Of a stretch of 64,000 bases of DNA, positions 1,242-53,228 are shown in pieces. Every line of letters begins with the position of its first letter. The stretch's first letter is position 1. Both the position numbers and the translations under genes were made by a program. Origin of the DNA: an uncultured Myxococcales bacterium (GTDB lineage Bacteria > Myxococcota > Kuafuiibacteriia > Kuafuiibacteriales > Kuafuiibacteriaceae); contig CAYXDO010000049.1 in assembly GCA_964463485.1 (NCBI GenBank), forward strand, positions 1,889 through 65,888, given 5' to 3'. The notes below the pieces were generated by a model. The model was not told the origin of the DNA. It did no database searches and was given only the letters and a program-made list of their open reading frames with translations.

Positions 1242-1340
1242 CGGAAAAAGCGGTCGACTTCGGGCGCGTGCGCGATAGTCTCTTTCTCCCAAAGTTAACG
1301 GATTCCCAAGTCCGTCAACGACAACATGAATCTTGGTCGA

Positions 1341-1370
1341 GTCCTCCTCGAGATCGTCCTCCTCGAGATC
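1341..1370. repeat. 15-bp tandem duplication (gtcctcctcgagatc x2), intergenic
   Basis: Read directly from the sequence. Confidence 0.8.
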
Positions 1371-1516
1371 GTCCAAAACACTCGCTTCCGGTCTTCTGTC
1401 CGCCCGCGGCACCCTGGTGGGCGCGAACGACGGACGCGTCGATCATCGCGAGCTCATCCTCGAAGCCCACCGCGAGACACCCCTTGCCTAGTACAATTTG
1501 TGTATCATCCAACCGA

Positions 1517-17894: not shown

Positions 17895-19673
17895 GCGCAA
17901 TCCCTCCTGAAAAGATCGCCGAGGTCCGCGCCCGAGTAGACATCGGGCGCGTGATCGGGCGCTCCGTCGAGCTGAAAAAACAAGGCCGACGCCTCACCGG
18001 ACGCTGCCCTTTCCACGACGACACTAGCCCCTCCTTCTCGGTCGAGCCGACGCTGAAGCTCTATCACTGCTTCGGATGTGGCGTCGGCGGTGACGTGTTC
18101 GACTTCGTGATGCGCCGCGAAGGCGTCGACTTCCCCGAAGCTGTCCGCCTGCTCGCGCGGGAGTACGGGATCGATCTGCCTCAACGCCCGGAAACCCAAG
18201 AAGAACGCGAACGACGAACCCGCCGAAAGCTCCTCCTGCGCGTCAACGAGCTCGCCCGCGACTTCTTCGTCGACCAGCTTCGGCTCGACGATCGCGCCCG
18301 CCAGTACCTCGACGAACGCGGACTCACCCAAAACACCATCCAACGCTTCGCTTTGGGCTTCGCGCCCCCGGGCTTCTCGAACCTGGTCGACCACCTCGAG
18401 GCCCGCAACGTCCCCGCCGACCTCGCTACCGAGCTCGGCCTCCTCGGACCACGACAATCCGGCGGAAGTTACGATCGGATCCGCGGACGAATCGTGTTTC
18501 CGATCGTCGCCCCAGGCGGCGACGTCATCGGCTTCGGAGCTCGTCGCGCCGACTGGATCGACAGCGGCCCCGACGCTCCCAAATACGTCAACTCACCGGA
18601 GAGCCCGATCTACGACAAATCGTCCGTTTTCTATGGCCTGGATGTCGCTCGGGAACATATTCGGAGGTCGGGCTCGGCCGTGCTGGTCGAGGGCTACATG
18701 GACGTCCTAGGGCTTCAGCAAGCTGGAATCGCGACCGCGATCGCCTCGTGCGGCACTGCGCTCTCCCAGAAGCACGCGGAGATCCTCGCAAAACTCGCGA
18801 AGCGTGTCGTCACGTTGTACGACGCTGACGATGCCGGAGTCGCTGCCACGCGAAAGAGCGCCGAGCTGCTCCTCACCGTCGGGCTCGACGTGAAAGTCGC
18901 CCGCTTGCCAGAGGGCGAGGACCCCGACACCTTCGTCCTGAAGCACGGAAAGGACGCGATCAACACCGTGCTCGACGGCGCCCCGTCGGCCATCGATGCC
19001 TTCGTCGACGAAGCTCGAAAAAAACACGCCGGCGAAGGAATCGCGGGTGTGTCTCAGACCGTCTCCGAGGTTCGCCCGTTCCTCACCGCCATCAAGGACC
19101 CGCTGATCCGCGACGTCGCCATGGAGGTCACCGCCAAAAAACTAGGCCTCGAACCTCAGATCCTCCGGCGCAACCTCACCGATCCCAACCCCAAACCGTT
19201 GCGCCCGGAGACCTCGGATCGAAAGCCACAGTCAAAGGAGCCCCCTCCGCCAGCCCTAGAACGTGAAGTGCTCCGGCACGCTCTGATGGCTCCCGGACCC
19301 ACCATCGCCGAGATCGATCGCTTCGGCGCCACAGACGCCATCACCCACCCCGCAATCCAAACGGGCCTCGCGATGACACGCATCGCGCTCCGAGACGGCC
19401 GAGACGTCGACGCGACCACGGTGCTCCAAGCGCTGGCTTCGACCGATCCTGCGGCTGCAATTCTCCTGAGAGAAACCCTAATAAACGCTCCTCCCGAGCC
19501 GACCGTGCTCACGGATTGTTTGCTGAAACTCCTCGAAAAGTATAGGGACGCCGAGTTGCGGCGGATCGCCCGAGTCGTGGGCTCGGGGGTCGCCGATGCG
19601 GAAACGATCGCTCGCATCGAGCGTCTGAAAGATCGGATCCGCGAGCTCTCGCCCGCGAGAGGCAGAAGTCGCC

Positions 19674-19681
<8 letters not shown>
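17891..19681 (+). CDS. dnaG: DNA primase (probable CTG start at 17891; first GTG at 17951)
   Basis: CPFHDD...YHCFGCG zinc finger, [21 protein letters not shown] and YDADDAG. Confidence 0.95.
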
Positions 19682-22469
<2,788 letters not shown>

Positions 22470-22548: not shown

Positions 22549-24867
22549 GTGCGCGCGTGTCCCAAATGCCGCTCCGTCTTCTCGGGCGAGATCGAGTTCT
22601 GCGGCATCGACGGCGAACGCCTGGTCAAAGCCGACACCGATCCGCTGATCGGATTCACCGTCGACCGCTACCAAGTGATCGAGCGCATCGGCGTGGGCGC
22701 CATGGGCTGCGTCTACCGCGCCAAACACGCCGTCATCGATCGTGAGTTCGCGGTGAAGGTCCTGTTCGGCGAGATGGCTTCGGACAAGAAGATCTCTCAG
22801 CGCTTCCGCAGAGAGGCGCAGGCGATCTCGCGCATGCGCCACCCCAACATCGTCAACATCACCGACTTCGGCACCTCCTCCGAAGGCCTCAGCTTCCTCG
22901 TCATGGAGCTGATCCAAGGCGCGACGTTGAAAGACGTAGTTCGCAGCGGACAACTCAAGGGTCAGCTCGAGCGCATCAAGAACATCACCCGCCAGATCTG
23001 CGAGGGGCTCGGGGAGGCGCACAGCCGCGGCCTCGTGCACCGAGACATGAAGCCCGGCAACGTGATGCTCGAAGCCGTCGGTACGCCGCGCGAGACCGTG
23101 AAGATCCTCGATTTCGGCATCGTCGGTCTGGCCGCGGACGGCGGCGAAGGGGACGAGCAAGCGCTCACGCACACCGGTGTCGCCCTAGGAACCCCCGCGT
23201 ACATGGCTCCCGAGCAAGCCCAGGGCGACAAAGTCGGTCCGCCCGCCGATTTCTACGCGCTCGGTGTGATCCTCTTCGAGATGCTGGCCGGAAGCGCTCC
23301 GTTCAAAGGCACGCTCAGCCAGGTGATGGTGCAACACATCTCGACGCCCCCACCGCCCCTGCCGCCGTCCGGCGGCCTGGAGCACATCGCCTTTCGCCTC
23401 CTCGAAAAGCTCCCCGCGAACCGAATCGGCACGGCCCAAGACCTCCTCGCCGTGATCGATAGCCTGCCCTTCCTTGGGCCACCGGGCACGGAGCCGATCG
23501 CACCCCCGCGCGCCCACTCAGGCACCGGAGCTTCGAACCCGGCCTTCGCTTCGAACCCGGCGTTCACTTCGAACCCATCGAACCCATCGGTTCGGCCACA
23601 AAACCTGCTCGCTTCCTCGCCGTCCCTCTCCCAAGTCCCTGGGTTGCCAAGCTACGGGCCCATCCCCACGGGCAGCACCACCAGCATTCCTGGGATCCCA
23701 GACGGACCCATGCTCTCCCCTGTCGCGAGCGTCCCCTCGCTGGGTGCCATTCAGATCCCGCCCGGCGGTCCGTCCGCCGGGTTGGCGTCGCCACCAGTCG
23801 GCGAAACGATGCTCGGACCCGCGGCCACCGGGCCCTCGCTGGGCGCGATTCCTCCGGCCCCTGCCTTCCTTCGAGACAACGTAGATTTCACGAGCTCCGA
23901 CCGCGCCACGCTCTCTCGTCAGGCCATCAAGACCAAGAGCTCGCTGCCTGCCATCCTCGGGATCGCGGCCGTACTCGGACTCGGCGTCGCCGCCGTGATC
24001 GCGCTGAAGCTCCGGCCAAACGACGAAGTCACGATCACCGCTGCACCCGACCCTGAAAGAGCTCCCCCAGATCGCGCGACACCGCCCCCACCGCCGCCTC
24101 CCCTCGCGCCGGTGAGTACGCCCGATGCCGCTGTGAGTGTCGTCAAGGCGCCCGAAACTCCTGCCAAGGCGCCCGACGTCGCCCCGACTCTGAAACCGCC
24201 GAAGAGTCCGATTGTCGCACCCATCACCAAGTTACCACCCACGAAGCTCCCAGAGCCCGAGAAGCCCCCGAAGGCTAAGTCCCCCGAGCTGGAGTGGGAG
24301 GCCCCGAATCCTACGCCCGCAAGCAAAGCGGAGGAGCTCCTGGCGACCGGTACCGTCAAAGTGCGCGTCACCGCAGGCGGCGCCGACCTCTCCGCCAAGA
24401 TCTACGTCGACGGAAAGCTCGAGTCCAAGGCCCCCGCAACCCTGTCCCTCGGGGTCGGAGAGCACCTCGTCAAAATCGTGACCGATGACGGAACCGCCGC
24501 CGAAAGAAAGGTCTTCGTCCGACCCGGCTCCATGGAGTCGACCGTCTTCGAATTCACGGAGTACGACCCACCCACCGCTCACTCCGCTCCCAGAGCTCTC
24601 GCGCCAGCACCGGATCGTCGGTCCGTCGATGCGCCGAACGTTCGTACCCCTCATGATAATAACGACCGCTCTCACCCGCCAACTCGAGCGCTGTCGCCAC
24701 CCGAATCACCGCCGCAGCGCCCTCCTCGCTCGTCTTCATCCCACGCACGAGCACGGAACGCATGGGCCATGGCACCGCGCGCCAAATCTCCGAGCCAATC
24801 ACCCCCGGATGCACCGCATACGCACACACCTTGCTCGGATCGAGCCGCCTCGCGAGCTCCTTGGTGA
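22549..24867 (+). CDS. Ser/Thr protein kinase with Pro-rich linker, TM helix and PEGA domain
   Basis: IGVGAMG, HRDMKPGN, DFG, GTPAYMAPEQ; PEGA IYVDGK. The last ~100 codons overlap the convergent SDR gene. Confidence 0.9.
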   Translation: MRACPKCRSVFSGEIEFCGIDGERLVKADTDPLIGFTVDRYQVIERIGVGAMGCVYRAKHAVIDREFAVKVLFGEMASDKKISQRFRREAQAISRMRHPNIVNITDFGTSSEGLSFLVMELIQGATLKDVVRSGQLKGQLERIKNITRQICEGLGEAHSRGLVHRDMKPGNVMLEAVGTPRETVKILDFGIVGLAADGGEGDEQALTHTGVALGTPAYMAPEQAQGDKVGPPADFYALGVILFEMLAGSAPFKGTLSQVMVQHISTPPPPLPPSGGLEHIAFRLLEKLPANRIGTAQDLLAVIDSLPFLGPPGTEPIAPPRAHSGTGASNPAFASNPAFTSNPSNPSVRPQNLLASSPSLSQVPGLPSYGPIPTGSTTSIPGIPDGPMLSPVASVPSLGAIQIPPGGPSAGLASPPVGETMLGPAATGPSLGAIPPAPAFLRDNVDFTSSDRATLSRQAIKTKSSLPAILGIAAVLGLGVAAVIALKLRPNDEVTITAAPDPERAPPDRATPPPPPPPLAPVSTPDAAVSVVKAPETPAKAPDVAPTLKPPKSPIVAPITKLPPTKLPEPEKPPKAKSPELEWEAPNPTPASKAEELLATGTVKVRVTAGGADLSAKIYVDGKLESKAPATLSLGVGEHLVKIVTDDGTAAERKVFVRPGSMESTVFEFTEYDPPTAHSAPRALAPAPDRRSVDAPNVRTPHDNNDRSHPPTRALSPPESPPQRPPRSSSSHARARNAWAMAPRAKSPSQSPPDAPHTHTPCSDRAASRAPW

Positions 24868-25405
24868 ACAGCACGTTGCAGAACTTGGCGATCCGATACT
24901 CTCGCATCCCGCCAAGACCAAAATACAACCTCGCAGGCGTCCGAAGACGCTCGAAATCGAGGGCTCCGGCTCGGTAGTGGGTGTTGCTCGATACGTTGAC
25001 GATTCGAGCAGGCGGTGACAGCGCGTCCAGCAACAGGCGCGTGAACAGAAAATGCCCGAGATGATTGACGCCAAAAGTCAGCTCGGACCCATCCTTGGTC
25101 AACCCAGGCTGGCTCGCCAAACCGGCATTGTTGATCAGCACCGAAAACGCGCTCCCTAGCTTCAGCGCCTTGACCGCCTCGGCTGCCCGCCGGACCGACG
25201 CCAGCTCGGCTAAGTCGAGCTCGACGAAATCGGCCTGCCCACCTCGCTGCCGAATCGCTTGAAGCACCGGCCGAGTCTTCTCTTCCGATCGACAAGCCAG
25301 GACGACCCGGGCGCCCCGCGCGGCAAGGCCCTCCGCAACGCCGCGGCCGATTCCGGTGTTCGCTCCGGTAATGACGATCGCTTTACCTTCGAGATCCTTC
25401 GGCAT
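24554..25405 (-). CDS. Short-chain dehydrogenase/reductase (retinol-dehydrogenase-like)
   Basis: TGANTGIG, LINNAG, FGVNHLGHF, YRIAK, HPGVI. Start ATG at 25405. Confidence 0.9.
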   Translation of the reverse strand: MPKDLEGKAIVITGANTGIGRGVAEGLAARGARVVLACRSEEKTRPVLQAIRQRGGQADFVELDLAELASVRRAAEAVKALKLGSAFSVLINNAGLASQPGLTKDGSELTFGVNHLGHFLFTRLLLDALSPPARIVNVSSNTHYRAGALDFERLRTPARLYFGLGGMREYRIAKFCNVLFTKELARRLDPSKVCAYAVHPGVIGSEIWRAVPWPMRSVLVRGMKTSEEGAAAVIRVATALELAGESGRYYHEGYERSAHRRTDDPVLARELWERSERWVGRTP

Positions 25406-25437
25406 ACGAGACCAGATCTCCCGGCCCCGCCAGGAGG

Positions 25438-26025
25438 TCAACCGCCGAACCGATCCACCACCGCGCGGGCCTTGGGAAAGTACGCCTCCCGATGGTACCG
25501 ATCGAACTCGGCGAGCGTCGTCAACGACCGTGGGTCCTTCACCCGATCCAGAAAAAGCGTAGCGTTCAGGTGGTCGACCTCGTGTTGGTACGTGCCTGCG
25601 GAAATCCCACGAGCAACCCTGTCGACGGGCTGGCCGTCGCGGTCGAAACCCATGACCCGAATCTCGGCAAATCGCTCCACGAGGCCCCTCAAGTTGGGCA
25701 CGCTGAGGCAGCCTTCGTAATTCCCGAAAATCTCCGCCGTGAGCGGCGCAAGCACGGGGTTGATCAGCACGGTCAACGGTATGTCGGGCGCGTATGGGTA
25801 GCGCGCATTGGCGCGAACCTCGAGCACGCAAATTTGAACGCTCTCGTGGACCTGCGGAGCTGCAAGCCCCGCTCCCATCGCGTCCCGCATCGTGGCGATC
25901 ATGTCGTCGATCAGCTCTTGAATCGGAGCGCTGCGAATCTCCGAGATGGGTACGGGGTCGGCGACCCTTCGAAGAATCGGGTGCCCAATCTGCGCGATCT
26001 TTCGAATCGTCGGCGTGCGTTCCAC
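25438..26025 (-). CDS. def: Peptide deformylase
   Basis: GAGLAAPQ, EGCLS and QHEVDHL motifs. The start (GTG 26025) is inferred. Confidence 0.93.
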   Translation of the reverse strand: MERTPTIRKIAQIGHPILRRVADPVPISEIRSAPIQELIDDMIATMRDAMGAGLAAPQVHESVQICVLEVRANARYPYAPDIPLTVLINPVLAPLTAEIFGNYEGCLSVPNLRGLVERFAEIRVMGFDRDGQPVDRVARGISAGTYQHEVDHLNATLFLDRVKDPRSLTTLAEFDRYHREAYFPKARAVVDRFGG

Positions 26026-26106
26026 GATCGATTCTCTCGGCCGAGCCCCCACGGCTGTCAACCTCGCAGTCACCAGCACTCATCCCCTGCCAGGGACGAG
26101 CGGCCG

Positions 26107-26808
26107 ATGCGGAGCGTTCGAAATGGGTCCATCGTTCCCGCCGTGACACCGGTGCCCACGAGCGCTCTCCTCGTCCTCGCGACCTCGCTCGCCTGCGGGT
26201 CGAACCCAGCGGACGAGCCCTTGGACTCAGGGGCGAAAGCCGATGGATCGACCAACACCGACGCGAGCTCTCACCCCTGCGTTGCCTCCTTCGGCGACGA
26301 GCTCACCAACGGCTTCGGCCGGATCGACGGAACGCTCGTCGCCATCGTCGAGCCCACCGACACCGAATGCCCGCTCTTCAACGACGACCATCTCGTCCTC
26401 GAAGTCATGATGATGGGTAAAGTATATCGTATGGTCGTCAATATCGTGTCGGACGGTCGTAGTGGAACGGACACCCGAGTACGGCTCGCGGAGCTCGACC
26501 ACGACCTCCCTGGACCCCCTTGGGCCGAGGGTTGGCACACTGGACTCTCCCTGGACTACCCATCGACGCTCGGAGTGCATTCGTCGACGACCAGCTTCGT
26601 CCCCTTCGAAATGAGTGCCTTGGTCGAGCGCGTGGCGGACAACCTCGAGCTCGGCCAGCCGATGAGTGTGTATGCCTCGAGCCAAAACCGGCCCTCCGGC
26701 GCACACCTCGTACATCGGAATGGCGAGCGAGACGATGGCGCCATCGTTGCAAGCGCCTCGACCGCACCTCGGTTCCTGTTGTTCGCCTTCGACGGCCAAG
26801 TCTTCTGA
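26107..26808 (+). CDS. Hypothetical lipoprotein, possibly DUF2278/YukJ-like
   Basis: Lipobox SLAC; H...Y...VNI.S, LDY and GAHLVH...DDGA pattern. The family call is from memory only. Confidence 0.55.
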   Translation: MRSVRNGSIVPAVTPVPTSALLVLATSLACGSNPADEPLDSGAKADGSTNTDASSHPCVASFGDELTNGFGRIDGTLVAIVEPTDTECPLFNDDHLVLEVMMMGKVYRMVVNIVSDGRSGTDTRVRLAELDHDLPGPPWAEGWHTGLSLDYPSTLGVHSSTTSFVPFEMSALVERVADNLELGQPMSVYASSQNRPSGAHLVHRNGERDDGAIVASASTAPRFLLFAFDGQVF

Positions 26809-34646: not shown

Positions 34647-34759
34647 AAACTACTCTCCGAATCGCGCTCTCGACGTCCTGAGACACTGATGTGATGGTGG
34701 GTGGGTCCCAGTGACTTAGGGGCCGTCAAGGAACTACCGGCTTTGATCGACGAGCTCGG

Positions 34760-35001
34760 GGTGACCGGACTCATCGGATTCGCAGCTTCGCGACCACGAC
34801 CGAATTACCGGATCAACTTGGTCTCCGATTGGCCAAGGCCGCACTCGCCATCGGAAAGGACGCCGTCCGCCTCAGATGAGGGTGACCAGACTCTTCGGAT
34901 TCGCAGCTTCGCGACCACGACCGAATTACCGGATCAACTTGGTCTCCGATTGGCCAAGGCCGCACTCGCCATCGGAAAGGACGCCGTCCGCCTCAGATGA
35001 G
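34760..35001. repeat. 121-bp direct tandem repeat, 2 copies (34760-34880, 34881-35001)
   Basis: The units differ at 2 positions by manual comparison. Confidence 0.9.
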
Positions 35002-35301
35002 TATACTTTCTCGCGCCGAACGCGCCCGAGCTCAGCTTCGATGACTCACTCCGAAGCTCCGGCAATCTCCGCCTCCAGCGCTCGCAGCGAAGCCAAGACG
35101 TCGCGCACGTCGGACGCATGGATTCCGGGCCCAACCCTCGTGCGTACATCGAGAAATCGTCGCTCGAACCTGGCCAGCTCGGGCGGCTCGACTTTGGAGC
35201 TCGACGCGCGGATCCGTGCGAAAACACCAACCAAGCGGTCCTCCAAAAAACGTTCGCCTTCGAACGAACCCAGATCCAACTCTGCCAAGCCACCGCGGGC
35301 C
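34994..35301 (-). pseudogene. Orphan copy C of the 3' end plus flank of the kinase at 49132-51792
   Basis: Aligns to 49080-49387 with ~25 mismatches. The reading frame is intact (LAELDLGSFEGERF...ASE*). Confidence 0.9.
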
Positions 35302-35313
35302 CGGGCAGTGCCC

Positions 35314-35455
35314 TTCGAACAGTGCCGGGCACCGCTCGAAATGGGCGGCACCGCTCGAAATGGGCGGCACACCGCTCGAAATGGGCGAAATGGGCAAGGC
35401 AGCTTCGTATTCGGTAGGAGCGCTGTTCGAAATGGGTCGGCACCGTTTGAAAAGG
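35314..35455. repeat. Cluster of short repeats with core GCACYGYTYGAAA (one inverted copy, then about five direct copies)
   Basis: ttcgaacagtgcc at 35314, ggcaccgctcgaaatgggc x3 (35328-35386), variants at 35420 and 35439. Confidence 0.85.
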
Positions 35456-35473
35456 CGCACTGCTGTATGCCGA

Positions 35474-35818
35474 CTACTTAGGAAGCCAGGCACACGATCC
35501 CTTGCCGCACCCACACCGGAGCGCGAACCGCTCGGCCCGCTGGCACGGGCAGACCGTTGTGAGGATGTGCAGGCAATAGGGAAAGTAAGATATGCAGGCT
35601 CCTGGCTCACAGCCGTAGTCCCCACAGTCCGAGTCCTTCGTACATTCGCCGCCCCCCCCTCCGCAGAACGGCTCAGTGTCGGCCTCCTCGCCGCACTCCC
35701 GACAGACCGGATCTGAATCGCAGGCACTGACGGGGGTGCTCGGCTCGGCGGGTTCTCGACCGCAGCCCCACAAGCCAACTCCGAGCAAAAGGAGCGGGAC
35801 AATCGGTCGGCGCTTCAT
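35474..35818 (-). CDS. Small Cys-rich lipoprotein, eight-cysteine-cluster-like domain
   Basis: Lipobox LWGC; FCG...C..D.DC...GC....C...C.C....C.W. ATGA overlap with the upstream FN3 ORF. Confidence 0.75.
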   Translation of the reverse strand: MKRRPIVPLLLLGVGLWGCGREPAEPSTPVSACDSDPVCRECGEEADTEPFCGGGGGECTKDSDCGDYGCEPGACISYFPYCLHILTTVCPCQRAERFALRCGCGKGSCAWLPK

Positions 35819-36433
35819 GGCGGAAACACCGGTCGCCCGAAGTCAGAACAAGTCACGTGTCCGTCGAAATCGAGGCAGCTTCTTATTCGGTAGGAGCCCG
35901 CGAAACTGGCCTGCGGGTCCAAGAACTCCACTGAGGGAAACGGACCCAAATGTCCCCGCACCAAGGCGACGGTTTCATAGTACGAGTCTTCGGGGCTCGG
36001 ACCGACCCGAATTTCCCGCTCGATCTCGTAGGCGTTCGCGAGTGGGCAGCCATCGGTCCACGAGACGCGCATTTGACTACCGTCGAGAGGCAAGACCGCT
36101 CCAGCCCAAGTCACGGAAGGTTGGGTCAATGCTGTCGACCCGACGCACCCAGCCTCCGCCCGGCAACGGGCCGCTGACCGTCAGCCGGAAGTTGACCGTC
36201 GGGATTGGCCCCGACCGCGACCAGGAGATGGGGAGAATGTCAAATCCAGGCGCGCCGACCAGGAAATTGGTGGGAACTTCTGGGACAATACTCACCGTGT
36301 CGAAGGAAACGGGTTCGGTCCACCCAGAGCAGACGACGCCGTCGACGGCGTCGCGACAGGCCCTGACGGACACGTCATAGGTCACACCCGGATGAAGCCC
36401 TTCCACCGCAGCGCGAGTTTGCGGTCCGATCAC
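35815..36433 (-). pseudogene. 5'-truncated, frameshifted fibronectin type III repeat protein
   Basis: FN3 motifs (GLHPGVTYDVSVRAC; VSWTD...YEIER) are split over two frames (36077-36433 and 35815-36129). No signal peptide. Confidence 0.75.
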
Positions 36434-36639
36434 ACGGTTGGCTAGTTAATTAGATCCGTTCCCGGTCCGGGTCCGGGTCCCGAAATTACTGGGCTCTTGC
36501 CCACTCGCCTGGGATCGTGGTGGCCGGTGACGGGCTCGCCGGTCATTCGAGGCGAGTACGCGATCTCCCGAATTTCGCACTCCGGGCGAACGGACTTGAG
36601 TGCCGCGACGCCGCCCGACACCATAGGGGGGGGGAGACC

Positions 36640-36924
36640 CTACTCGCCGCGAGCAACCCGGCGGAAGTTCTCGTCGACCCACTGGCACTTGTGCTCGACA
36701 CAGGCACAAACGAGGTCATAGGGCTCCGGATTCTCGCACGCTATTTTTATGTGCGTCGCGTGAGTTTGGATTTCCTTCGTGGCGCATAGCCTCGCCCAGC
36801 CCGATGCGTTGCACTCCGTGTCGCTCGTGCAATAGTCGAACTCACTGAAACCGCAGAACTCATCGGAGCTGCATCCTAGGACGGCGGCCATCGCCGCCGT
36901 AATTAGCGCTCGCGGCCCCATCAT
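36640..36924 (-). CDS. Small Cys-rich lipoprotein, eight-cysteine-cluster-like domain (paralog of 35474-35818)
   Basis: Lipobox VLGC; FCGFSEFDYCTSDTEC...CACVEHKCQW. ATGA overlap at 36921-36924. Confidence 0.75.
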   Translation of the reverse strand: MMGPRALITAAMAAVLGCSSDEFCGFSEFDYCTSDTECNASGWARLCATKEIQTHATHIKIACENPEPYDLVCACVEHKCQWVDENFRRVARGE

Positions 36925-37490
36925 TCGACTTGGCACGCCGCTGTACAGCCATCGCCGTCGTCCGTGTTGCGATCGTCGCACTGCTCTCCGGCGTCGACTC
37001 GGTGGTTGCCGCAGACGCGAGCCAAGGCGAGATTACTCCATTCCGAGCACGCCGAATCGACACATGAACGAACAAAATACCGCCCCTGAAGGAGGACGTC
37101 GGGATCAACAATCGAGAGAGTCGGCAAGGGACCTTGGTGACCTTGGACGAAATGGTTCACCCAATCCATTGGAATGGGACCCGGTGCAGAGCCCGGCCAA
37201 TCAGATACGATTTGGTAGAGGTTTGCTTCCACGTTGCAGTCGGCCCAACTCAGTTGAACATCATCGCCCATCACCGAAGTGACTCGAAGGCCGGCTGGAG
37301 CGCAAGGCACGAATCCATCGGTCTGTTGAGGGAGGAACGCGTTGGCGCAGCCATCGAGGGAGCACGCACGCACATTGATGACGTACGTCCGGGTCTTTCT
37401 GAGGTTGTCAAAGGTGAAGCTGCGGGCGGACGCAGGTAGCGGTCGCTGCGGAAACCGATGATCACGTGTCCAGGCTACCACTTCATACTG
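36921..37490 (-). pseudogene. 5'-truncated FN3 repeat protein ending in a Myxococcus cysteine-rich repeat
   Basis: FDNLRKTRTYVINVRAC, a full FN3 domain, then CGNHRVDAGEQCDDRNTDDGDGCTAACQVE. It begins mid-domain at a hexamer repeat tract. Confidence 0.78.
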
Positions 37491-37614
37491 TCGGGGTCGA
37501 AGTCGGAGTCGGAGTCGGAGTCGCCGCCCTCGGCCGACCAAGTCAGTCGCACGTCGTCGCCTTGCGACTCCCCGAGCTCATCGTCCGAGACACGGTGACA
37601 CTCGATGCCTTCGC

Positions 37615-38160
37615 CCGCAGCCTGCTGCCGTTCGGTGACTCGGTCTGGGCAGTGCTACCTTGGGAAGGCCGGCTGGTTCGCTTGGTGCCCAGATGAGTAT
37701 ACTTTCACGCGCCAAGCGCGCCCGAGCTCAGCTTCGATGACTCACTCCGAAGCTGCGGCAATTTCCGCCTCTAGCGCTCGCAGCGAAGCCAAGGCGTCGC
37801 GCACGTCCGACGCATCGATTCCGGGCCCAACCCTCGTGCGTACGTCGAGAAATCGTCGCTCGAACCTGGCCAGCTCGGACGGCTCGACTTTGGCGCTCGA
37901 CGCGCGGATCCGAGCGAGAACACCCTTCAGACGCTCCTCCAAAAATCGTTCGCCTTCGAATGAACCCAGATCCAGCTCTGCCAAGGCACGGCGGGCCGCC
38001 ACTTCGTCTCGAGCGGCCACCGCGTCTCGCAGCCTTCGTCCGACTTCGGCCGTCGAAGGCACCAACAACAGGTCCGAAAGCTCGAGCCCACGGGAACGTA
38101 GCTCCGCGCTGACGGTCGTTCGGACGGCGTCGGCGGCCGGGGCCTTCGCAGGCCGCGGTT
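37615..38160 (-). pseudogene. Orphan copy B of the 3' end plus flank of the kinase at 49132-51792
   Basis: 37615-38100 is identical to 49005-49490 (486 bp, checked line by line); 38101-38160 is similar but diverged. Confidence 0.95.
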
Positions 38161-38163
38161 CGC

Positions 38164-38229
38164 GAAGCTTTTCGAACAGTGCCAGTGCGGGAAGCTTTTC
38201 GAACGGTGCCGAAGCTTTTCGAACAGTGC
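38164..38229. repeat. Three copies of gaagcttttcgaacRgtgc(c)
   Basis: Copies at 38164, 38191 and 38211. They share the 13-mer TTCGAACAGTGCC with 35314. Confidence 0.9.
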
Positions 38230-38426
38230 GACAAGCGCACCTATGATATGAAGGTCGCCTGACCATCAACCACCACCGGATCGCAGCTTCACGGCAACGG
38301 GCCGACGAGACTCCTTCGCGGCCCCTCGCACCGAAGGTTCCGTCGTTCGACCCAGCGAGCGCCGAGCCGTTGCTGACCAACTGGTGCTCATCACGCCTAT
38401 CTCGGCTGGCGTGCATCCTGCGACAA

Positions 38427-39893
38427 TCAAGAGCCTCGCAGAATCCGGCAACCCTCTGATTCCCGCTCGGACTCAACACAACCCATCGTCACCGATCGGA
38501 AATCACCGATGCCCACCAGAGCCCGTTCGAGCGGCGTCTCCCGCCCAAACACGACAACGGAAATGCGTTCGTACGTGCGTAGCGCCGTCACGATACGGTC
38601 GATCGCGGGAAGAGCCACGGTATCGTTGCCTCCCGAAAAGACGACTCGTAACCGGGTCGATCCCTCGATCGAGACGGCCACATACCCATCAGGTGCCGGC
38701 TGAAGCGCCAGCGTGAGGCGATCGGGATAGATTGAGATCCGGGGCGAATCAAGCATCGACCCCGGCAATCTTGCAGGCGATCCCTCCGCGACCGCAAGGC
38801 GAACCGCATCCTCATTTGCCAGGCGGCTCCAATCGAACGAAGCCACGATCACTGATGTCGTTCCGTCCGGCGCGCGAATCGACCACCGTGCAGGCGCACA
38901 GTTTGGAGGCTCGGAAATGACGTCAACAGCCCCTGGAACGAAGTTCCATGCACTGTCGTGCCTCGCCGCGATGGCCAACACCGTTTCATCGCACCGACCG
39001 ATCTCTGGAACTGCGAAGGTCGTCGTTGCGCTCGCGGGTGTCGACACTTCGAAAGTGAGGGCGTCCTGTCGATACTCGGGCCCGCAGTCGCCGGTACAGC
39101 TAGCCCGGACCATGATAGCGAGGTCTTCGGAAAAGCCCGATGTTGCGCCACGGAGAACTGGCAAGATCGCGCCAGGCCAAATGGCAGTACCGGGCCCTGA
39201 GCAGAACCGACCCGGCCGGGATGCATTGGCCAAAGTGAAAAAGAGCGAGGCACGCACGTTGCCTCCGATCGCCCAGGCTACGTAGTCACCAGAGACAGTC
39301 CGATGGTCGACGAGGCAGCCGAGCATTCCCGCTGGAACGTCGACACTGCCACAGTGGGGCTCGCCAGGTTGGTCGGAGATTCCGGGGGCTAAAAGAGATC
39401 GAGGTACCTCGACCGTCCTAGTCATCCCCGACTCCGGGTCGTAAACCTGGGGTTTCAGCGTATCGCAAAACAGTGAACTGATCCCAAGGTCGGACCGGTA
39501 CCTCGGGAGAGAGAGTCCACCGATCGCAAGGCGGATAGCGTCGGGGCTCGTGGCGGTCGTCGTGGAGAGGCGTCCTCGTACTCCGCTGGGGCGAGCACCT
39601 TCCTCCCGGCGGAGGGCGACACGGATTGGTTCGGATCCGCCAACGAGGAGCACGAGCATCGACTCATATTCCGCGCGCTCGAGCAGAACAAAGTTGGCAG
39701 GTTTGGACTGGTAGAAATGAACGATCCCACCTTGCGCGCTCACCTTGCCTTCTGCTGCCGTTGCCTGAACGTCGCCAAGTAACTTCTGGTTCTCGTCGTA
39801 GATAAGGGCTCCGAAAGAATACGCCGGAAACGGATCCGGGCCTTCGTCACCAGCGCATGCGGCGAAAACGGCGAGGCCAATGCACGCCCTCAT
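38427..39893 (-). CDS. Hypothetical lipoprotein (488 aa), translationally coupled to the giant upstream gene
   Basis: Lipobox FAAC. ATG at 39893 overlaps the TGA of the upstream ORF (ATGA). Confidence 0.72.
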   Translation of the reverse strand: MRACIGLAVFAACAGDEGPDPFPAYSFGALIYDENQKLLGDVQATAAEGKVSAQGGIVHFYQSKPANFVLLERAEYESMLVLLVGGSEPIRVALRREEGARPSGVRGRLSTTTATSPDAIRLAIGGLSLPRYRSDLGISSLFCDTLKPQVYDPESGMTRTVEVPRSLLAPGISDQPGEPHCGSVDVPAGMLGCLVDHRTVSGDYVAWAIGGNVRASLFFTLANASRPGRFCSGPGTAIWPGAILPVLRGATSGFSEDLAIMVRASCTGDCGPEYRQDALTFEVSTPASATTTFAVPEIGRCDETVLAIAARHDSAWNFVPGAVDVISEPPNCAPARWSIRAPDGTTSVIVASFDWSRLANEDAVRLAVAEGSPARLPGSMLDSPRISIYPDRLTLALQPAPDGYVAVSIEGSTRLRVVFSGGNDTVALPAIDRIVTALRTYERISVVVFGRETPLERALVGIGDFRSVTMGCVESERESEGCRILRGS

Positions 39894-49131: not shown

Positions 49132-51792
49132 TCACTCCGAAGCTGCGGCAATTTCCGCCTCTAGCGCTCGCAGCGAAGCCAAGGCGTCGCGCACGTCCGA
49201 CGCATCGATTCCGGGCCCAACCCTCGTGCGTACGTCGAGAAATCGTCGCTCGAACCTGGCCAGCTCGGACGGCTCGACTTTGGCGCTCGACGCGCGGATC
49301 CGAGCGAGAACACCCTTCAGACGCTCCTCCAAAAATCGTTCGCCTTCGAATGAACCCAGATCCAGCTCTGCCAAGGCACGGCGGGCCGCCACTTCGTCTC
49401 GAGCGGCCACCGCGTCTCGCAGCCTTCGTCCGACTTCGGCCGTCGAAGGCACCAACAACAGGTCCGAAAGCTCGAGCCCACGGGAACGTAATTCCGCGCT
49501 GACGGTCGTTCGGACGGCATCTGCGGCCAGGGCCTTCGCCGGCCGCCGTTCCGCCGACGAACCGCGGCGGAGCCCCACCGGAAGCGACTTCGACTTCACC
49601 CTCGCCCATGGCTTGGTGCTCTCCTGGGCCACTGTCGCCGTCGGTGAAAAAACGGCCGAAGCCTCTCGATCCACCTCTGACGCGACCTCGAGTCGCGGAG
49701 CTGCGCTCGCCTCCACACTGGGCGCGGGCTCAGCAGCCAACTCGACCGGCGCTCTCTGCCCCAACAACTTCGCGCCCAAGAGTACGATCGCGATCGACGC
49801 CAAGCACACCGTAAGAGCCGCGATCAACCGAGCGAGCCGGCCCCTCGGAGCCGCGATGACACGAGTCGCGGCTCCTACCCCAGCCAAGAGCTCGACCGAC
49901 GCGAGCGCCTCCGAGGCAGTCGGCCGGTCCCTGACCTCTCGGCACAACATCGCCGTGATGAGCGGCCCCAATGGACCCGCACGTTCGCTGACCACCGGCG
50001 CTCCCGACAGCCTCCGCTCAGCCACCTGCCGCGCCGGCCCCGTGAATGGCCCGGCTCCGTCCAGCATGTAGATCGCCAACAGCCCAACCGAATAGATATC
50101 CGTTGGTGCACCAACGATCTCTGGATTTTGAAGCTGTTCTGGGGACAAGAACCGAAGCGTGCCGACCACGTCGCCGGCGCGCGTGAGGCGGGTAGACTCG
50201 CTCTCCGTCGGCAGAGCGACCCCGAAGTCGAGCACCTTCACCCGACCGTCGTCGAGCTTCATCACGTTGGCCGGCGATAGGTCGCGATGCACGTAGCCCG
50301 CCGCATGAACCTCCTCCAGGGTGGCCAGCACCGAACGAATGATCGGGGCGACCTCGTCCAGCGGCAACGGCCCACGATCTTCGACGATCCCGCGCACGGT
50401 CTTGCCGCGCAAGAGCTCCATCACCATGTAGAGGCGACCGTCGGGTGTGGATCCGCGGTCGATGACCTTCACCAAGCCCTGGTGACTCAACTTCGTCAGC
50501 GCGTCGATCTCGCGGCGAAAACGCTCGTGGGCCCTTCGATGGGTTGCCGGCGTGTGGAGGATCTTGAGCGCGTAGGTCTCGCCGGAGTCCTCACGCACGG
50601 CTTTGAAAACCTCCCCAAAGCCGCCACGGCCGATCGACGCCTGAATTCGATACTCACCGAAGCGAATCGCCGTCTCGTCCTCCTCCGGCGCCGTTGTTTC
50701 GCTCTCTTCGGGCTTGGCATCCCGTGGCTGCGCTCGCTGAGGATCGGGCGCCGTCACGGAGTCAGCCCGTGCCTTCGTGGGCTCGCTCGATCCGGCGGAC
50801 TCCGACGACAGCAGCGACGGCACCGCGACTGCATCGGGCACGTCCGCATTCTCTTCAGGGACCGCAAACAACGCGCTCAAGGGGCTCCGCGCCTTCGGTC
50901 GACCGCCTTGACGCAGACCCGCCATGACCTCGACGAGTGTGTCGCGAGGATCGAGATCGTCACGACTCGCGATCGCTGCGAGCAGCGCACGCCGAAGCTC
51001 GAGGGCGCTCTTCGTGCGGCCCTCGCGCTGAGCGACGAGGGCGCGGGAGATGGGTGTAATCAGGTCGGGCGGGAGACCCGACGGCAGCTCGACCGGCTGT
51101 CCCGCGATCACCTTGCGCCGCAAGGACTCGGAGGCCATCGGATTCTCACCCGAGAGGACCCGAACCAGCACGAGCCCGAGCGCAAAAATATCCGCGCGCG
51201 GATCCGCGACCTCCCCGCGATGCTGCTCGGGCGCCATCCACTCCAGCTTCCCCTTCGAAATGCCCACCTTCGTTCGCGCTTGGCGAGCGTGCGCGAGCGC
51301 GATCCCGAAGTCCGCGAGCTTCACGTCCCCGGCAAAGGAAACCAACACGTTCTCCGGGCTCACGTCCCGATGCACGACACCCAATGAACGTCCGTCACCG
51401 TCTTTCGCGGAGTGGGCATGCTCCAGCGCACGCGCGAGCTCGGAGACTATGAACAACGCCGCTGTCTCGGGGAGCAACTCGCGCCGCTCGGCGCGCTGAT
51501 CTTCGAGCGTCGAAAGATCGACGCCGTCGATCAACTCGAGCGCCTGGAAGGGCGCCCCGTCTAGCTCGCCAAAGTCGAGCAGCGAGACGATGTTCCCGTG
51601 TGAGAGCTGGGAAAGAATTCGGGCCTCATCCAAGAACCCAGCCACGAGCTCGGGATCGTCGAGACTCTCTCGGAGAAGCCGCTTGATGGCTACTCGCCGT
51701 GAGAACCCAAACGCCCCGTGTGATGTCGCCTCGTAGAGGTCCGCCATCCCCCCCCGCTGGATCAGCCGGACCAACTCGTAGCGGGATGCCAC
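49132..51792 (-). CDS. Ser/Thr protein kinase with two tandem kinase domains, TM helix and C-terminal helical domain
   Basis: First domain HRDVSPEN/DFG/WMAPEQ; second domain IGRGGFG/HRDLSPAN/DFG/FLSPEQ. Confidence 0.92.
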   Translation of the reverse strand: MASRYELVRLIQRGGMADLYEATSHGAFGFSRRVAIKRLLRESLDDPELVAGFLDEARILSQLSHGNIVSLLDFGELDGAPFQALELIDGVDLSTLEDQRAERRELLPETAALFIVSELARALEHAHSAKDGDGRSLGVVHRDVSPENVLVSFAGDVKLADFGIALAHARQARTKVGISKGKLEWMAPEQHRGEVADPRADIFALGLVLVRVLSGENPMASESLRRKVIAGQPVELPSGLPPDLITPISRALVAQREGRTKSALELRRALLAAIASRDDLDPRDTLVEVMAGLRQGGRPKARSPLSALFAVPEENADVPDAVAVPSLLSSESAGSSEPTKARADSVTAPDPQRAQPRDAKPEESETTAPEEDETAIRFGEYRIQASIGRGGFGEVFKAVREDSGETYALKILHTPATHRRAHERFRREIDALTKLSHQGLVKVIDRGSTPDGRLYMVMELLRGKTVRGIVEDRGPLPLDEVAPIIRSVLATLEEVHAAGYVHRDLSPANVMKLDDGRVKVLDFGVALPTESESTRLTRAGDVVGTLRFLSPEQLQNPEIVGAPTDIYSVGLLAIYMLDGAGPFTGPARQVAERRLSGAPVVSERAGPLGPLITAMLCREVRDRPTASEALASVELLAGVGAATRVIAAPRGRLARLIAALTVCLASIAIVLLGAKLLGQRAPVELAAEPAPSVEASAAPRLEVASEVDREASAVFSPTATVAQESTKPWARVKSKSLPVGLRRGSSAERRPAKALAADAVRTTVSAELRSRGLELSDLLLVPSTAEVGRRLRDAVAARDEVAARRALAELDLGSFEGERFLEERLKGVLARIRASSAKVEPSELARFERRFLDVRTRVGPGIDASDVRDALASLRALEAEIAAASE

Positions 51793-51875
51793 AAAGAGAG
51801 GCTATACACATTTATAGGACGAGAGATCGGCAACTCGTCCTGGCGCAGAAGGCCTCCGTCTCGTACCGTCTCGCG

Positions 51876-53228
51876 GTGTCCAGAACCGTAGCTCACCACG
51901 TGCCGACCGTGCCGGTCCGACGCCTTCGTGTCGATGTCCTCGATGGCCCCGACGCGGGAAAAAGCCACATCGCCTCCGCGGACGTCATCACGCTCGGCAC
52001 CGCGCCAGGCAACGATCTCATCCTCACCGACCCCACCGTGTCCGGCTATCACCTGGAGCTCCGGTGCGAGGACAACAAGATCACACTCGTCGACCACGGC
52101 TCCACGAACGGCACGGCGCTCGGAGGCGTGCGCCTCGAACGCGCGTCGATCCCCCCAGGAACCCTGCTCAAACTCGGCCGGACCGAGATCCGAGTCGACG
52201 ACGAAGGGACCGTCGACTGCGAAATCCTCGGCGGCGATCACCTGGGCGCCGTGCGCGGCCGCTCTTCGGTCATGCGCAGACTCCTCGCAACCCTGGAGCG
52301 CGCCGCGCGAAGTGATACTTCCGTCCTCCTCCTCGGAGAGACCGGGACTGGCAAAGAAGTCCTCGCCCGCGCCCTCCACGAAGCCAGCCCCCGCCGGGAC
52401 CACCCATTCGAAACCGTCGACTGCGGGGCCTTGATCCCCACACTCACCGCAAGTGAGCTGTTCGGACACGAACGCGGTGCCTTCACCGGCGCCGAACAAC
52501 AACACATCGGAGCCTTCGAACGCGCCCAAGGCGGAACGGTCTTCCTCGATGAGATCGGAGAGCTCCCGCCCACGATCCAAGTAATGCTCCTCGGCGTCCT
52601 CGAACGACGAGTCATGAAACGGCTCGGGGGCAAGACGCCCATTCCCGTCGACGTCCGTGTCGTCGCGGCGACGAACCGGGATCTTCGTGAGGAGGTCAAC
52701 AAAGGGACCTTCCGACAAGACTTGTACTACCGAATCGCGGTACTCATGCTAAGAGTACCGCCGCTTCGCGAACGGCTCGACGACATCCCCATACTCATCG
52801 AGCATTTCCTGCGGGAAGACGGCTACTCGGGACCCATCGAATCGGTGATCGGCCGCTCCGTGCTCTCCACTCTCTCGAGTCATCGCTGGCCCGGCAACGT
52901 CCGCGAGCTGCGAAACTTCGTGGAGGTCGCGCGCGCCATGGGTGAGGCGCCGCCTCTACATGAGTCTGTGGACGCGGAGTCCGCCCCGCACCAAGAGCCC
53001 GCCCCGGAGGGGCTCGCGGTCGACATATCGATCCGAGGGCTCGAGGCGCAGCGCCCGCTCTACAAGGAGCTTCGAGAGATTGTAGTTCGGAAATTCGAGG
53101 AGATTTTCCTCGACCACCTCATGGAACGTACGAGAGGCAACGTCGCCAAGGCGGCTCGAGAGGCCGAGATGGATCGAAATTATCTGACTCAGCTCTTGCA
53201 CCGGCACGGCAAGAAATCGAAGCCCTGA
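51876..53228 (+). CDS. FHA-domain sigma-54-dependent transcriptional activator
   Basis: FHA DHGSTNGT, GETGTGKE, ELFGHERGAFTGA, WPGNVREL, HTH. Start moved to GTG 51876 to avoid overlapping the divergent kinase. Confidence 0.92.
   Translation: MSRTVAHHVPTVPVRRLRVDVLDGPDAGKSHIASADVITLGTAPGNDLILTDPTVSGYHLELRCEDNKITLVDHGSTNGTALGGVRLERASIPPGTLLKLGRTEIRVDDEGTVDCEILGGDHLGAVRGRSSVMRRLLATLERAARSDTSVLLLGETGTGKEVLARALHEASPRRDHPFETVDCGALIPTLTASELFGHERGAFTGAEQQHIGAFERAQGGTVFLDEIGELPPTIQVMLLGVLERRVMKRLGGKTPIPVDVRVVAATNRDLREEVNKGTFRQDLYYRIAVLMLRVPPLRERLDDIPILIEHFLREDGYSGPIESVIGRSVLSTLSSHRWPGNVRELRNFVEVARAMGEAPPLHESVDAESAPHQEPAPEGLAVDISIRGLEAQRPLYKELREIVVRKFEEIFLDHLMERTRGNVAKAAREAEMDRNYLTQLLHRHGKKSKP

Follow-up and report, generated by a model that had tools for sequence, protein, structure and literature searches.

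A teneurin-like giant gene with variable, predicted protease ends and coupled lipoprotein genes in a Myxococcota-like bacterium

In this work, we analysed a locus in a 64-kb window (the whole stretch of metagenome-derived DNA studied here, in which all coordinates are counted), where a giant gene of the bacterial teneurin-like type is followed by the gene of a 488-aa lipoprotein, lipo488, and further downstream by two remnants of FN3-domain genes, each with its own small Cys-rich ORF (open reading frame), lipo-1 and lipo-2 (Table 1). All genes of the locus lie on the minus strand. We favour, with moderate confidence, the reading that this is a polymorphic effector locus which evolves by displacement of its C-terminal modules and whose lipoprotein partners neutralise its own protease. 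An earlier description of this DNA (the first-pass annotation) had claimed three pairs of an exported protein and a lipoprotein, each joined by an ATGA overlap, and all three junctions could be read directly on the minus strand: ..TGT CAA TGA / ATG AGG GCG between the giant gene and lipo488 (39893..39890), ..GTC GAA TGA / ATG ATG GGG between FN3-1 and lipo-1 (36924..36921), and ..CCG CCA TGA / ATG AAG CGC between FN3-2b and lipo-2 (35818..35815). Taking the window together with a paralogous locus, L004, of the same metagenome-assembled genome (MAG), an ATGA or 10-nt overlap was found at every junction between effector side and partner (6/6), and a PS51257-type lipobox in four of the six partners.

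Table 1. Features of the locus, with positions in the 64-kb window.
Feature	Position	Strand	Description
X0	49002..49551	-	Genuine 3' end of the kinase gene and about 130 nt downstream; source copy of the repeat
Giant gene, whole ORF	48784..39890	-	2964 aa
Giant gene, conserved body	42480..48784	-	About aa 1-2100; Pfam domains and teneurin-like match
Giant gene, variable C-terminal region	39890..42479	-	About 800 aa; predicted FTP/PepSY-type propeptide and gluzincin catalytic domain
lipo488	39893..38427	-	488-aa lipoprotein ORF; proposed partner/inhibitor of the C-terminal protease
Array 1	38168..38230	-	Three copies of the 14-nt border repeat, abutting X1
X1	37612..38161	-	550-nt copy of the kinase 3' end and downstream sequence; pseudo-fragment, apparent recombination scar
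FN3-1 remnant	36921..37615	-	ORF 37541..36921 of 206 aa; frameshifted FN3, P domain, Cys repeat
lipo-1	36924..36640	-	94 aa, 9 Cys, intact
FN3-2 remnant	35815..36433	-	Two frames: 36433..36077 (FN3-2a) and 36129..35815 (FN3-2b)
lipo-2	35818..35474	-	114 aa, 15 Cys, intact; exported or lipoprotein-like
Array 2	35311..35454	-	About five direct copies of the border repeat and one inverted; the last pair forms a strong hairpin
X2	34994..35301	-	308-nt, older and shorter copy of the kinase 3' end, 92% identity

Judged from its sequence, the giant protein is a relative of the bacterial teneurin-like/Rhs polymorphic toxins that lacks their YD shell. Its body comprises an N-terminal beta-rich region, PKD, Big_9/cadherin-like and He_PIG domains, a teneurin TTR domain, an NHL propeller and about three YD repeats (Pfam). 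The TTR_TEN1-4 match is clear (7.7e-19), the propeller is of the teneurin type (PF25021 TEN_NHL, 2.6e-28; NHL, 4.5e-23), and the FN-plug match, PF24329, is weak (18.0 bits, E 0.0035, with a cut-off of 27.8 bits). The best match among PDB sequences is a bacterial teneurin-like protein (9pt5/9ifo, E 4e-34), and the alignment stops after about three YD repeats, with about 100 aa of YD-like repeats aligned. No PF25023 or PF05593 match, which would mark the YD/RHS shell, was found with Pfam in the giant protein or in its homologues P0009 and P0010 (P-numbers denote homologous proteins, L-numbers loci), and nearly all of the more distant teneurin/Rhs-type homologues (e.g. P0011-P0021) carry both. 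A regular-expression search (DP.G[LWIVF]) for a PxxxxDPxGL-type autocleavage motif returned DPSGI within a YD repeat as the sole hit in the giant protein and nothing in P0010. The start codon of the giant gene is uncertain, with a TTG at 48784. DNA from about 160 nt upstream of this TTG is conserved between the window (48700-48960) and L004 (9662-10001), and a promoter-like pair, TTGACG...GATTCT, is included in the conserved DNA upstream of the giant genes.

The variable C-terminal region is probably an M4/M36 (thermolysin/fungalysin)-like protease zymogen belonging to a new gluzincin family. It carries HEAAH at aa 2712 and EGIAH 33 aa further on, and the last 565 aa (39893-41587) have 17 relatives among 1.84e9 representatives (P0135-P0148 among them), most of which are stand-alone proteins of about 850 aa, several with a lipoprotein signal of their own. 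In an alignment of 12 sequences (A4), HExxH is near-invariant and EGxA, 33 residues later, is invariant, which is the gluzincin pattern. The propeptide was recognised through a PepSY match in the giant C-terminal region (E 0.011) and through the A4 family profile, which matches residues 12-221 of the pro-thermolysin propeptide (5a3y) at E 7.6e-9; single-sequence PDB searches with both metalloprotease C-termini were empty, and the family profile alone gave the match. An AlphaFold2 model of the region (pLDDT 69.7) resembled the propeptide chains of vibriolysin and Aspergillus M36 (Foldseek prob 1.0) and, more weakly, the catalytic domain of a Fusarium M36 protease (prob 0.84, TM 0.31/0.42). The zymogen prediction is therefore based on the gluzincin signature, the thermolysin-type propeptide seen by both profile and fold, and the weaker M36 catalytic match. 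With Pfam, no M4/M36 catalytic match was found in the giant C-terminal region or its relatives, and no family of any kind in the 17. The protease family also conserves WPDCR, several Cys pairs and the C-terminal motif F.RHG[IV]D..L..[FY]C....C[H]. GC3 is 0.65-0.66 in the variable region and lipo488, compared with 0.74-0.82 in core genes, and the G+C content of the cassette is likewise lower; GC3 frame plots separate reading frames poorly here. Behind one stand-alone relative, two small lipoprotein-like ORFs begin 8 nt downstream.

The comparison with L004 makes the polymorphism of the locus apparent. Its giant gene product, P0010 (3104 aa), is 81% identical to the giant protein of the window over 1900 aa and about 18% identical thereafter. 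Within the body, a 400-aa block (aa 1095-1494; window 44300-45500) is 96-100% identical against a background of 63-90%, and this near-identical block is a recent gene conversion between the giant paralogues. The C-terminus of P0010 consists of a fervidolysin-type prodomain, a Peptidase_S8 domain (1e-45) and FG-GAP repeats, so that a constant N-terminal body carries unrelated C-terminal modules, the M4/M36-like zymogen in the window and Peptidase_S8 in L004. The stop codon of P0010 overlaps the start of a 459-aa ORF (ATGA at 19312), and the encoded lipoprotein (lipobox LIAGC, weak Kelch matches) is unrelated to lipo488. Two further modules follow in L004. The second is a further orphan: a 780-aa predicted zymogen ORF, marked by HEYGH...DEGFAD and a weak FTP match, is joined by an ATGA at 23095 to a 183-aa signal/Cys ORF. 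In the third, the last 115 aa or so are 40% identical (E 2e-25) to the end of the giant protein, and this protease-tail ORF overlaps a 465-aa lipoprotein ORF by 10 nt at 25125. The latter (25125-26519) is a full-length homologue of lipo488 (28% identity, E 2e-36), again placed behind a relative of the protease tail. By its sequence, the third module has the form of a textbook orphan, in which a truncated effector tail is kept with an intact cognate gene, and it follows from this orphan that the protease end and the 488-aa-type lipoprotein are inherited together. The first-pass annotation had likened the locus to polymorphic toxin loci, proposing an effector-partner design and orphan modules whose partner gene outlasts the effector. 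Both parts gain from these data: the design from the teneurin-like/Rhs relation and from a paralogue that joins the same body to another protease and, through ATGA, to another lipoprotein; the orphans from the 5'-truncated protease tail of L004 with its complete lipo488 relative. The view that the window holds a true polymorphic locus, beyond mere analogy, is thus supported.

The partner of the giant gene, lipo488, has a PS51257-type lipobox (AVFAAC) and lies at single-copy unitig depth; an alternative start, TTG at 39920, would give a better signal peptide and a 31-nt overlap with the giant gene. No relative other than the L004 copy was found. A word-indexed homologue search with lipo488 returned nothing, and the same method also missed the 28%-identical L004 copy, which was later spotted by eye. 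None of the partners is similar to a known inhibitor or to a solved structure, and no Pfam match links the lipoproteins to potempins. By analogy, a role as inhibitors or immunity proteins is most likely for these partners. Their co-inheritance with the proteases would fit any specific interaction, and they could instead be cognate helpers without immunity function, such as an outer-membrane anchor, a docking or secretion partner, or a maturation factor, which the giant protein, having neither a Sec signal nor a known delivery system, may need in the envelope. Helpers, however, would be useless without a client, whereas intact partners beside destroyed effectors are expected of immunity or inhibitor genes. 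We consider the helper explanation rather unlikely for this reason and for the precedents of protease-adjacent lipoproteins, which are inhibitors (PMC9890683), even though the partners, unlike typical small inhibitors, are of considerable size and differ from one another (one of 459 aa with weak Kelch matches; 465 and 488 aa with a weak CarboxypepD_reg-like N-terminus).

The two FN3 genes had been described as paralogous and 5'-truncated, and both statements hold. FN3-1 and FN3-2b are 35% identical over 74 aa (E 1e-10), and their alignment (A5) reproduces the motif noted before, SW.D..AN.Y.I..GP.P..GH.GP.P..DP..G.Y..RSC.D. The Pfam fn3 match begins at profile position 31 in FN3-1 (E 2e-6) and at position 46 in FN3-2a, and both genes are frameshifted as well. 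In FN3-1, the missing first strand (DDVRLTWSAEGGDSDSDSDFDPD) lies upstream in a different frame, with the frameshift inside a GACTCC repeat, and the frameshifted FN3 is accompanied by a divergent FN3-like domain, here called P, and by one myxobacterial Cys-rich acidic repeat (DUF4215, TIGR02232). FN3-2 consists of the end of one FN3, half of a second, a frameshift or deletion, and then the P domain. A homologue search with FN3-1 returned itself and Cys-repeat proteins, the outside matches being confined to the Cys repeat, and in a search for related loci the P domain had a single outside match, to a generic multi-FN3 protein; by its sequence, P appears to be only a divergent FN3-like module. 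These pieces, which have neither a start codon nor a signal, are not effectors, as had been suggested, and are instead frameshifted C-terminal tails of lost genes. A 1456-nt Logan contig at genome-like depth is about 90% identical to 37005-37487 and has 973 nt of extra 5' sequence. Since such single-copy-depth sequences are longer on the 5' side, more complete FN3 paralogues exist elsewhere in the genome. Further Logan unitigs at single-copy depth match part of FN3-2b (35939-35988).

Both small lipoprotein genes are intact, as the first-pass annotation had stated. Its lipoprotein assignments stand for lipo488 and for lipo-1, whose lipobox, AAVLGC, is also of the PS51257 type, and are less clear for lipo-2, which carries MKRRPIVPLLLLGVGLWGC and has KRR, a hydrophobic segment and a Cys, but a W at position -2. 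An identical lipo-2 ORF was found on Logan and NCBI contigs. The two proteins are paralogues with 27-28% identity and 7 Cys in common; TIGR04289 was rejected as their identity (19-20 bits against a 50-bit cut-off). A second allele of lipo-1, found in sequencing runs X1 and X3 (run X1 is not the repeat copy X1 of Table 1), has 10 clustered substitutions (36718-36752; H58L, I61K, A62Q, P67A), with the frame and every Cys retained, and resembles a patch acquired from a paralogue by gene conversion. From their position and by analogy, the two FN3/lipoprotein pairs are best read as displaced orphan modules.

The borders of the modules carry what look like recombination scars, namely arrays of a short repeat and extra copies of the upstream gene's 3' end. 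The gene upstream of the giant gene encodes an 886-aa kinase with two Pkinase domains (Pfam; 51792..49132). Its 3' end recurs as X1, which precedes the FN3/lipoprotein block and is 98.5% identical to X0 over 550 nt, and as X2, which follows the block and is 92% identical to the kinase 3' end over 308 nt in a three-way alignment. X was accordingly rejected as a small conserved gene, and the antisense ORFs at 34876-35481 and 37605-38246 were rejected as the S/R-rich antisense of X. In L004, a 67-nt copy of the upstream gene's 3' end (9266-9332) is repeated after the last module (26630-26696, 98.5%), and two short pieces of the giant body, one encoding MSFAWDLDADGAFDDATGAEP, stand at module borders. 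The border repeat is a 14-nt sequence, TTYCGARCRGTGCC, whose copies in Array 1 read GGCACYGTTCGAAA on the gene strand. Its arrays hold 3-9 copies spaced 19-30 nt apart and are confined to module borders, behind partner genes and before orphan modules, two in the window (35311-35454 and 38168-38230) and two in L004 (20795-20968 and 24549-24736); the array counts were reached by no shuffle. Full arrays end in an inverted copy that gives a 12-14 bp hairpin (-25.2 kcal/mol, z -3.8, in Array 2). Candidate roles for the arrays are a recombination site, a terminator or iterons; sigma-54 promoters were dismissed, as no TTGC element is present. The duplicated 3' ends fit Campbell-type insertion of circular cassettes or repeated displacement. 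A 121-nt tandem repeat (two copies, 98% identical) lies right after X2 at 34759-35000, with one copy on the sibling MAG contig, and its unit includes a 30-nt stretch that recurs immediately downstream of X0 (48979-49008).

Such repeats could in principle be produced by an assembly that concatenated strain variants of one locus, giving false kinase-end repeats and a false module array. The source is metagenome-assembled, and the window differs from a sibling contig by about 1%, a 168-nt indel and one 121-nt unit, but we regard this explanation as very improbable. Unitig depth is flat over the flanks, lipo488 and the FN3/lipoprotein block in the four runs examined (about 20-22x in run X1), as expected of a single copy, and independent unitigs bridge the lipo488-X1, X1-FN3-1 and lipo-2-X2 junctions in several runs; for example, Logan unitigs of two runs cross from lipo488 into X1, and one 640-nt unitig runs from X1 into FN3-1. 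Two MAG assemblies are the same over 43784..34900 apart from 2 SNPs in X1. Because the depth is flat and unitigs span the critical junctions, the arrangement of the locus is not an assembly artefact. The body of the giant gene is less certain, since the 1% divergence and the 168-nt indel (43784-43953) fall in its repetitive stretch; its unitig depth is 2-4x that of the flanks. Apparent joints in the unitig lay-out (e.g. 36933/48789 and 34987/37615) were rejected as rearrangements, as their sides are of 21-30 nt or derive from repeat copies.

The window matches contig JACQYO010000024.1 (locus L005) of the groundwater-metagenome MAG GCA_016208175.1 ('Deltaproteobacteria bacterium') and also the sibling contig of 67,752 nt. 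Its surroundings are chromosomal and Myxococcota-like, with an RpoD-like gene, a Mur ligase, six Ser/Thr kinases and two FHA-sigma54 activators. One activator (51699-53228, plus strand) is divergent from the two-kinase-domain Ser/Thr kinase (49132-51792, minus strand) just upstream of the giant gene, and a second activator/kinase pair lies at 1268-4836.

In the reading that we favour, a conserved teneurin-like body bears an interchangeable C-terminal module, a predicted secreted-type protease zymogen, which differs by locus (an M4/M36-like metalloprotease in the window and a subtilase in the paralogue). Each module comes down as a single cassette together with a translationally coupled gene, and the partners so encoded are predicted to be exported and, in most cases, lipid-anchored. 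Such a partner would act in the cell envelope by binding its own protease and neutralising it, giving self- or kin-protection in the manner of immunity proteins and potempins. When an incoming cassette recombines in, the old one would be shifted downstream, where its effector part, now truncated, decays and its partner gene stays open. The two FN3/Cys-rich-lipoprotein pairs would be displaced modules of this kind, with effectors reduced to a C-terminal accessory tail (FN3, FN3-like domain and Cys repeat). The sequences show the architecture, the polymorphism, the joint inheritance of modules and the scars; protease activity, location in the envelope, inhibition or immunity, and a former place of the FN3 tails in giant-type genes are inferred.

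The FN3/lipoprotein block also admits a plainer explanation, which we judge unlikely: that the giant gene and lipo488 are the sole functional unit, and that the FN3 pieces and small Cys ORFs are the debris of an unrelated, tandemly duplicated secreted-protein operon disrupted by cassette insertion, whose ATGA overlaps and open small ORFs have no present function. The truncated and frameshifted state of the FN3 pieces would suit this, and no piece of the giant body adjoins the FN3/lipoprotein pairs; L004, however, has orphans in which a broken effector likewise stands beside an intact partner, and the border-repeat array and X copies that bound the block are of the same kind as those at the proven modules. 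At a G+C content of 64%, chance readily yields ORFs of 94-114 aa and NTGA junctions: in the window, long open frames meet at 54 NTGA junctions, 15 of which are ATGA, and unrelated neighbour genes in the same genome also overlap by 4 nt, so the overlap alone is weak evidence. Both small ORFs, on the other hand, start exactly at the ATGA with a signal-peptide/Cys motif, their 7 common Cys positions at just 28% identity point to constraint at the protein level, and the second lipo-1 allele keeps frame and Cys. The P domain and the small lipoproteins have no outside homologues beyond generic FN3 or Cys-repeat matches, lipo-2 is uncalled on the sibling NCBI contig, and a sigma-70 promoter scan over 34.5-40.2 kb gave 0 sites, which is uninformative.

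Besides these chance junctions, several points weigh against the displacement and neutralisation reading. First, the comparison base is two loci of one MAG lineage. Searches of GTDB representative genomes and JGI metagenomes yielded no locus related to the lipo488 pair, and GTDB representative genomes yielded none related to the conserved body. Two stand-alone protease relatives have no adjoining lipoprotein gene. Second, as to the proteins themselves, none of the candidate starts of the two giant genes showed a Sec signal and no delivery system was identified, so the label 'exported' given earlier to the upstream proteins is not upheld; the lipoboxes of lipo-2 and of the 183-aa ORF of L004 are atypical. 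Profiles of lipo488 with its 465-aa L004 homologue and of lipo-1 with lipo-2 gave nothing relevant against PDB and no likeness to potempins, and a single-sequence structure model of lipo488 was discarded (pLDDT 33). The FN3 tails are linked to the giant family by position, and the searches made with them turned up no full-length parent. Third, a search of RNA sequencing runs for the sequence found none, and the public gene calls on L005 give a 109-aa piece of the 488-aa ORF (18487-19953) and skip lipo-2 (22562-22906). Both ORFs are called in full on Logan contigs, so the public annotation of the locus is incomplete.

Most knowledge of polymorphic toxin systems concerns small intracellular toxins and their cytoplasmic immunity proteins. 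The present locus suggests that whole extracellular protease precursors with lipoprotein partners can be driven by the same evolutionary engine, in which the delivery body stays constant, its tips are exchanged, protection genes travel along and orphans accumulate as in a graveyard. If the partners are inhibitors, new protease-inhibitor pairs would be added (the gluzincin family with the 488-aa lipoprotein, S8 with the Kelch-like partner, and two 8-Cys mini-lipoproteins), and the locus would be a natural experiment in specificity. It may also illustrate the fate of a teneurin scaffold after loss of the YD shell, and the route of cassette exchange may become visible in the border-repeat arrays and the copied ends of the flanking gene. 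A bolder proposal, which we hold to be unlikely, is that Myxococcota-like bacteria possess a hitherto undescribed class of polymorphic system for attack or kin recognition, in which a shell-less, teneurin-derived giant adhesin displays interchangeable, complete zymogens of different catalytic classes, each with an envelope-anchored lipoprotein inhibitor as its immunity, and whose cassettes turn over by the 14-nt arrays (TTYCGARCRGTGCC). If this were true, the hairpin-ending arrays would be a dedicated recombination signal, and Campbell-type events beside the flanking gene would build an integron-like cassette store.

Among known systems, the genetic arrangement can be set beside Rhs/CDI loci. 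Orphan toxin-immunity cassettes and C-terminal displacement are described for these by Zhang et al. 2012 (PMC3482391) and reportedly by Jackson et al. 2009, and the facts seen here fit such displacement, which is described for bacterial teneurin-like toxins as well (PMC13018210). The likenesses are a constant 5' body with a variable 3' module and cognate gene, the lower G+C content of the cassette, a downstream array of 5'-truncated orphans, and short constant-region pieces at module borders. In contrast, the effectors of Rhs/CDI loci are nucleases, deaminases and ADP-ribosyltransferases, whereas those here are predicted extracellular-type protease precursors and most of their partners are lipoproteins. 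The copies of the upstream flanking gene's 3' end and the 14-nt arrays found here are not described for those loci. Bacterial teneurin-like proteins (TLPs) are defined by an FN-plug, an NHL propeller and a YD shell enclosing a toxin of about 15 kDa (PMC13018210). Their genes are followed by an immunity gene, social bacteria of Myxococcota-like type are enriched in them, and some of them lack a signal peptide (Raoelijaona et al. 2026, PMC13018210). TLPs provide the best sequence match to the giant protein and share with it the TTR, NHL and first YD repeats, a polymorphic C-terminus and a diverse gene directly downstream. However, the giant protein is shell-less with about three YD repeats, its C-terminal part, a predicted zymogen of about 800-1100 aa, could not be encapsulated, and no DPxGL-type motif was found. 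The TLP partners are small, presumably cytoplasmic immunity proteins, whereas those here are predicted exported lipoproteins; one lipoprotein immunity family only (Imm65) was present in the collection of Zhang et al. 2012 (PMC3482391).

For the proposed function, pairs of a protease and its inhibitor offer a second comparison. As far as they are described where PMC9890683 cites them, serralysin-Inh/AprI, staphopain-staphostatin and the streptopain inhibitor are co-transcribed pairs, and the serralysin inhibitors are periplasmic and protect the producer. They resemble the present locus in that the gene of a specific inhibitor stands behind that of the protease within a single operon, and differ in being single conserved pairs, with no polymorphic modules on a shared scaffold and no orphan arrays. 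The KLIKK peptidases of Tannerella forsythia comprise metallo and subtilisin-like classes with a common non-catalytic part (Ksiazek et al. 2022, PMC9890683), and their potempins are small lipoproteins whose genes overlap the protease gene or lie <=5 bp from it and are co-transcribed with it. Potempins are cognate-specific inhibitors that guard the outer membrane of the producer, and 'orphan' small lipoprotein ORFs are also mentioned (PMC9890683). The two systems differ in several respects: the potempin gene lies upstream of the protease gene and the partner gene here downstream, the common part is a C-terminal T9SS domain there and a 2000-aa N-terminal body here, no sequence similarity exists, and two partners here are of 460-490 aa. 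Displacement or orphan effector remnants are not described for KLIKK peptidases, and inhibition at our locus is proposed by analogy with them. Nevertheless, both have proteases of different classes on a common part, each with an unrelated, overlapping lipoprotein gene, and from this likeness the KLIKK-peptidase/potempin system appears to be the closest functional analogue of the locus.

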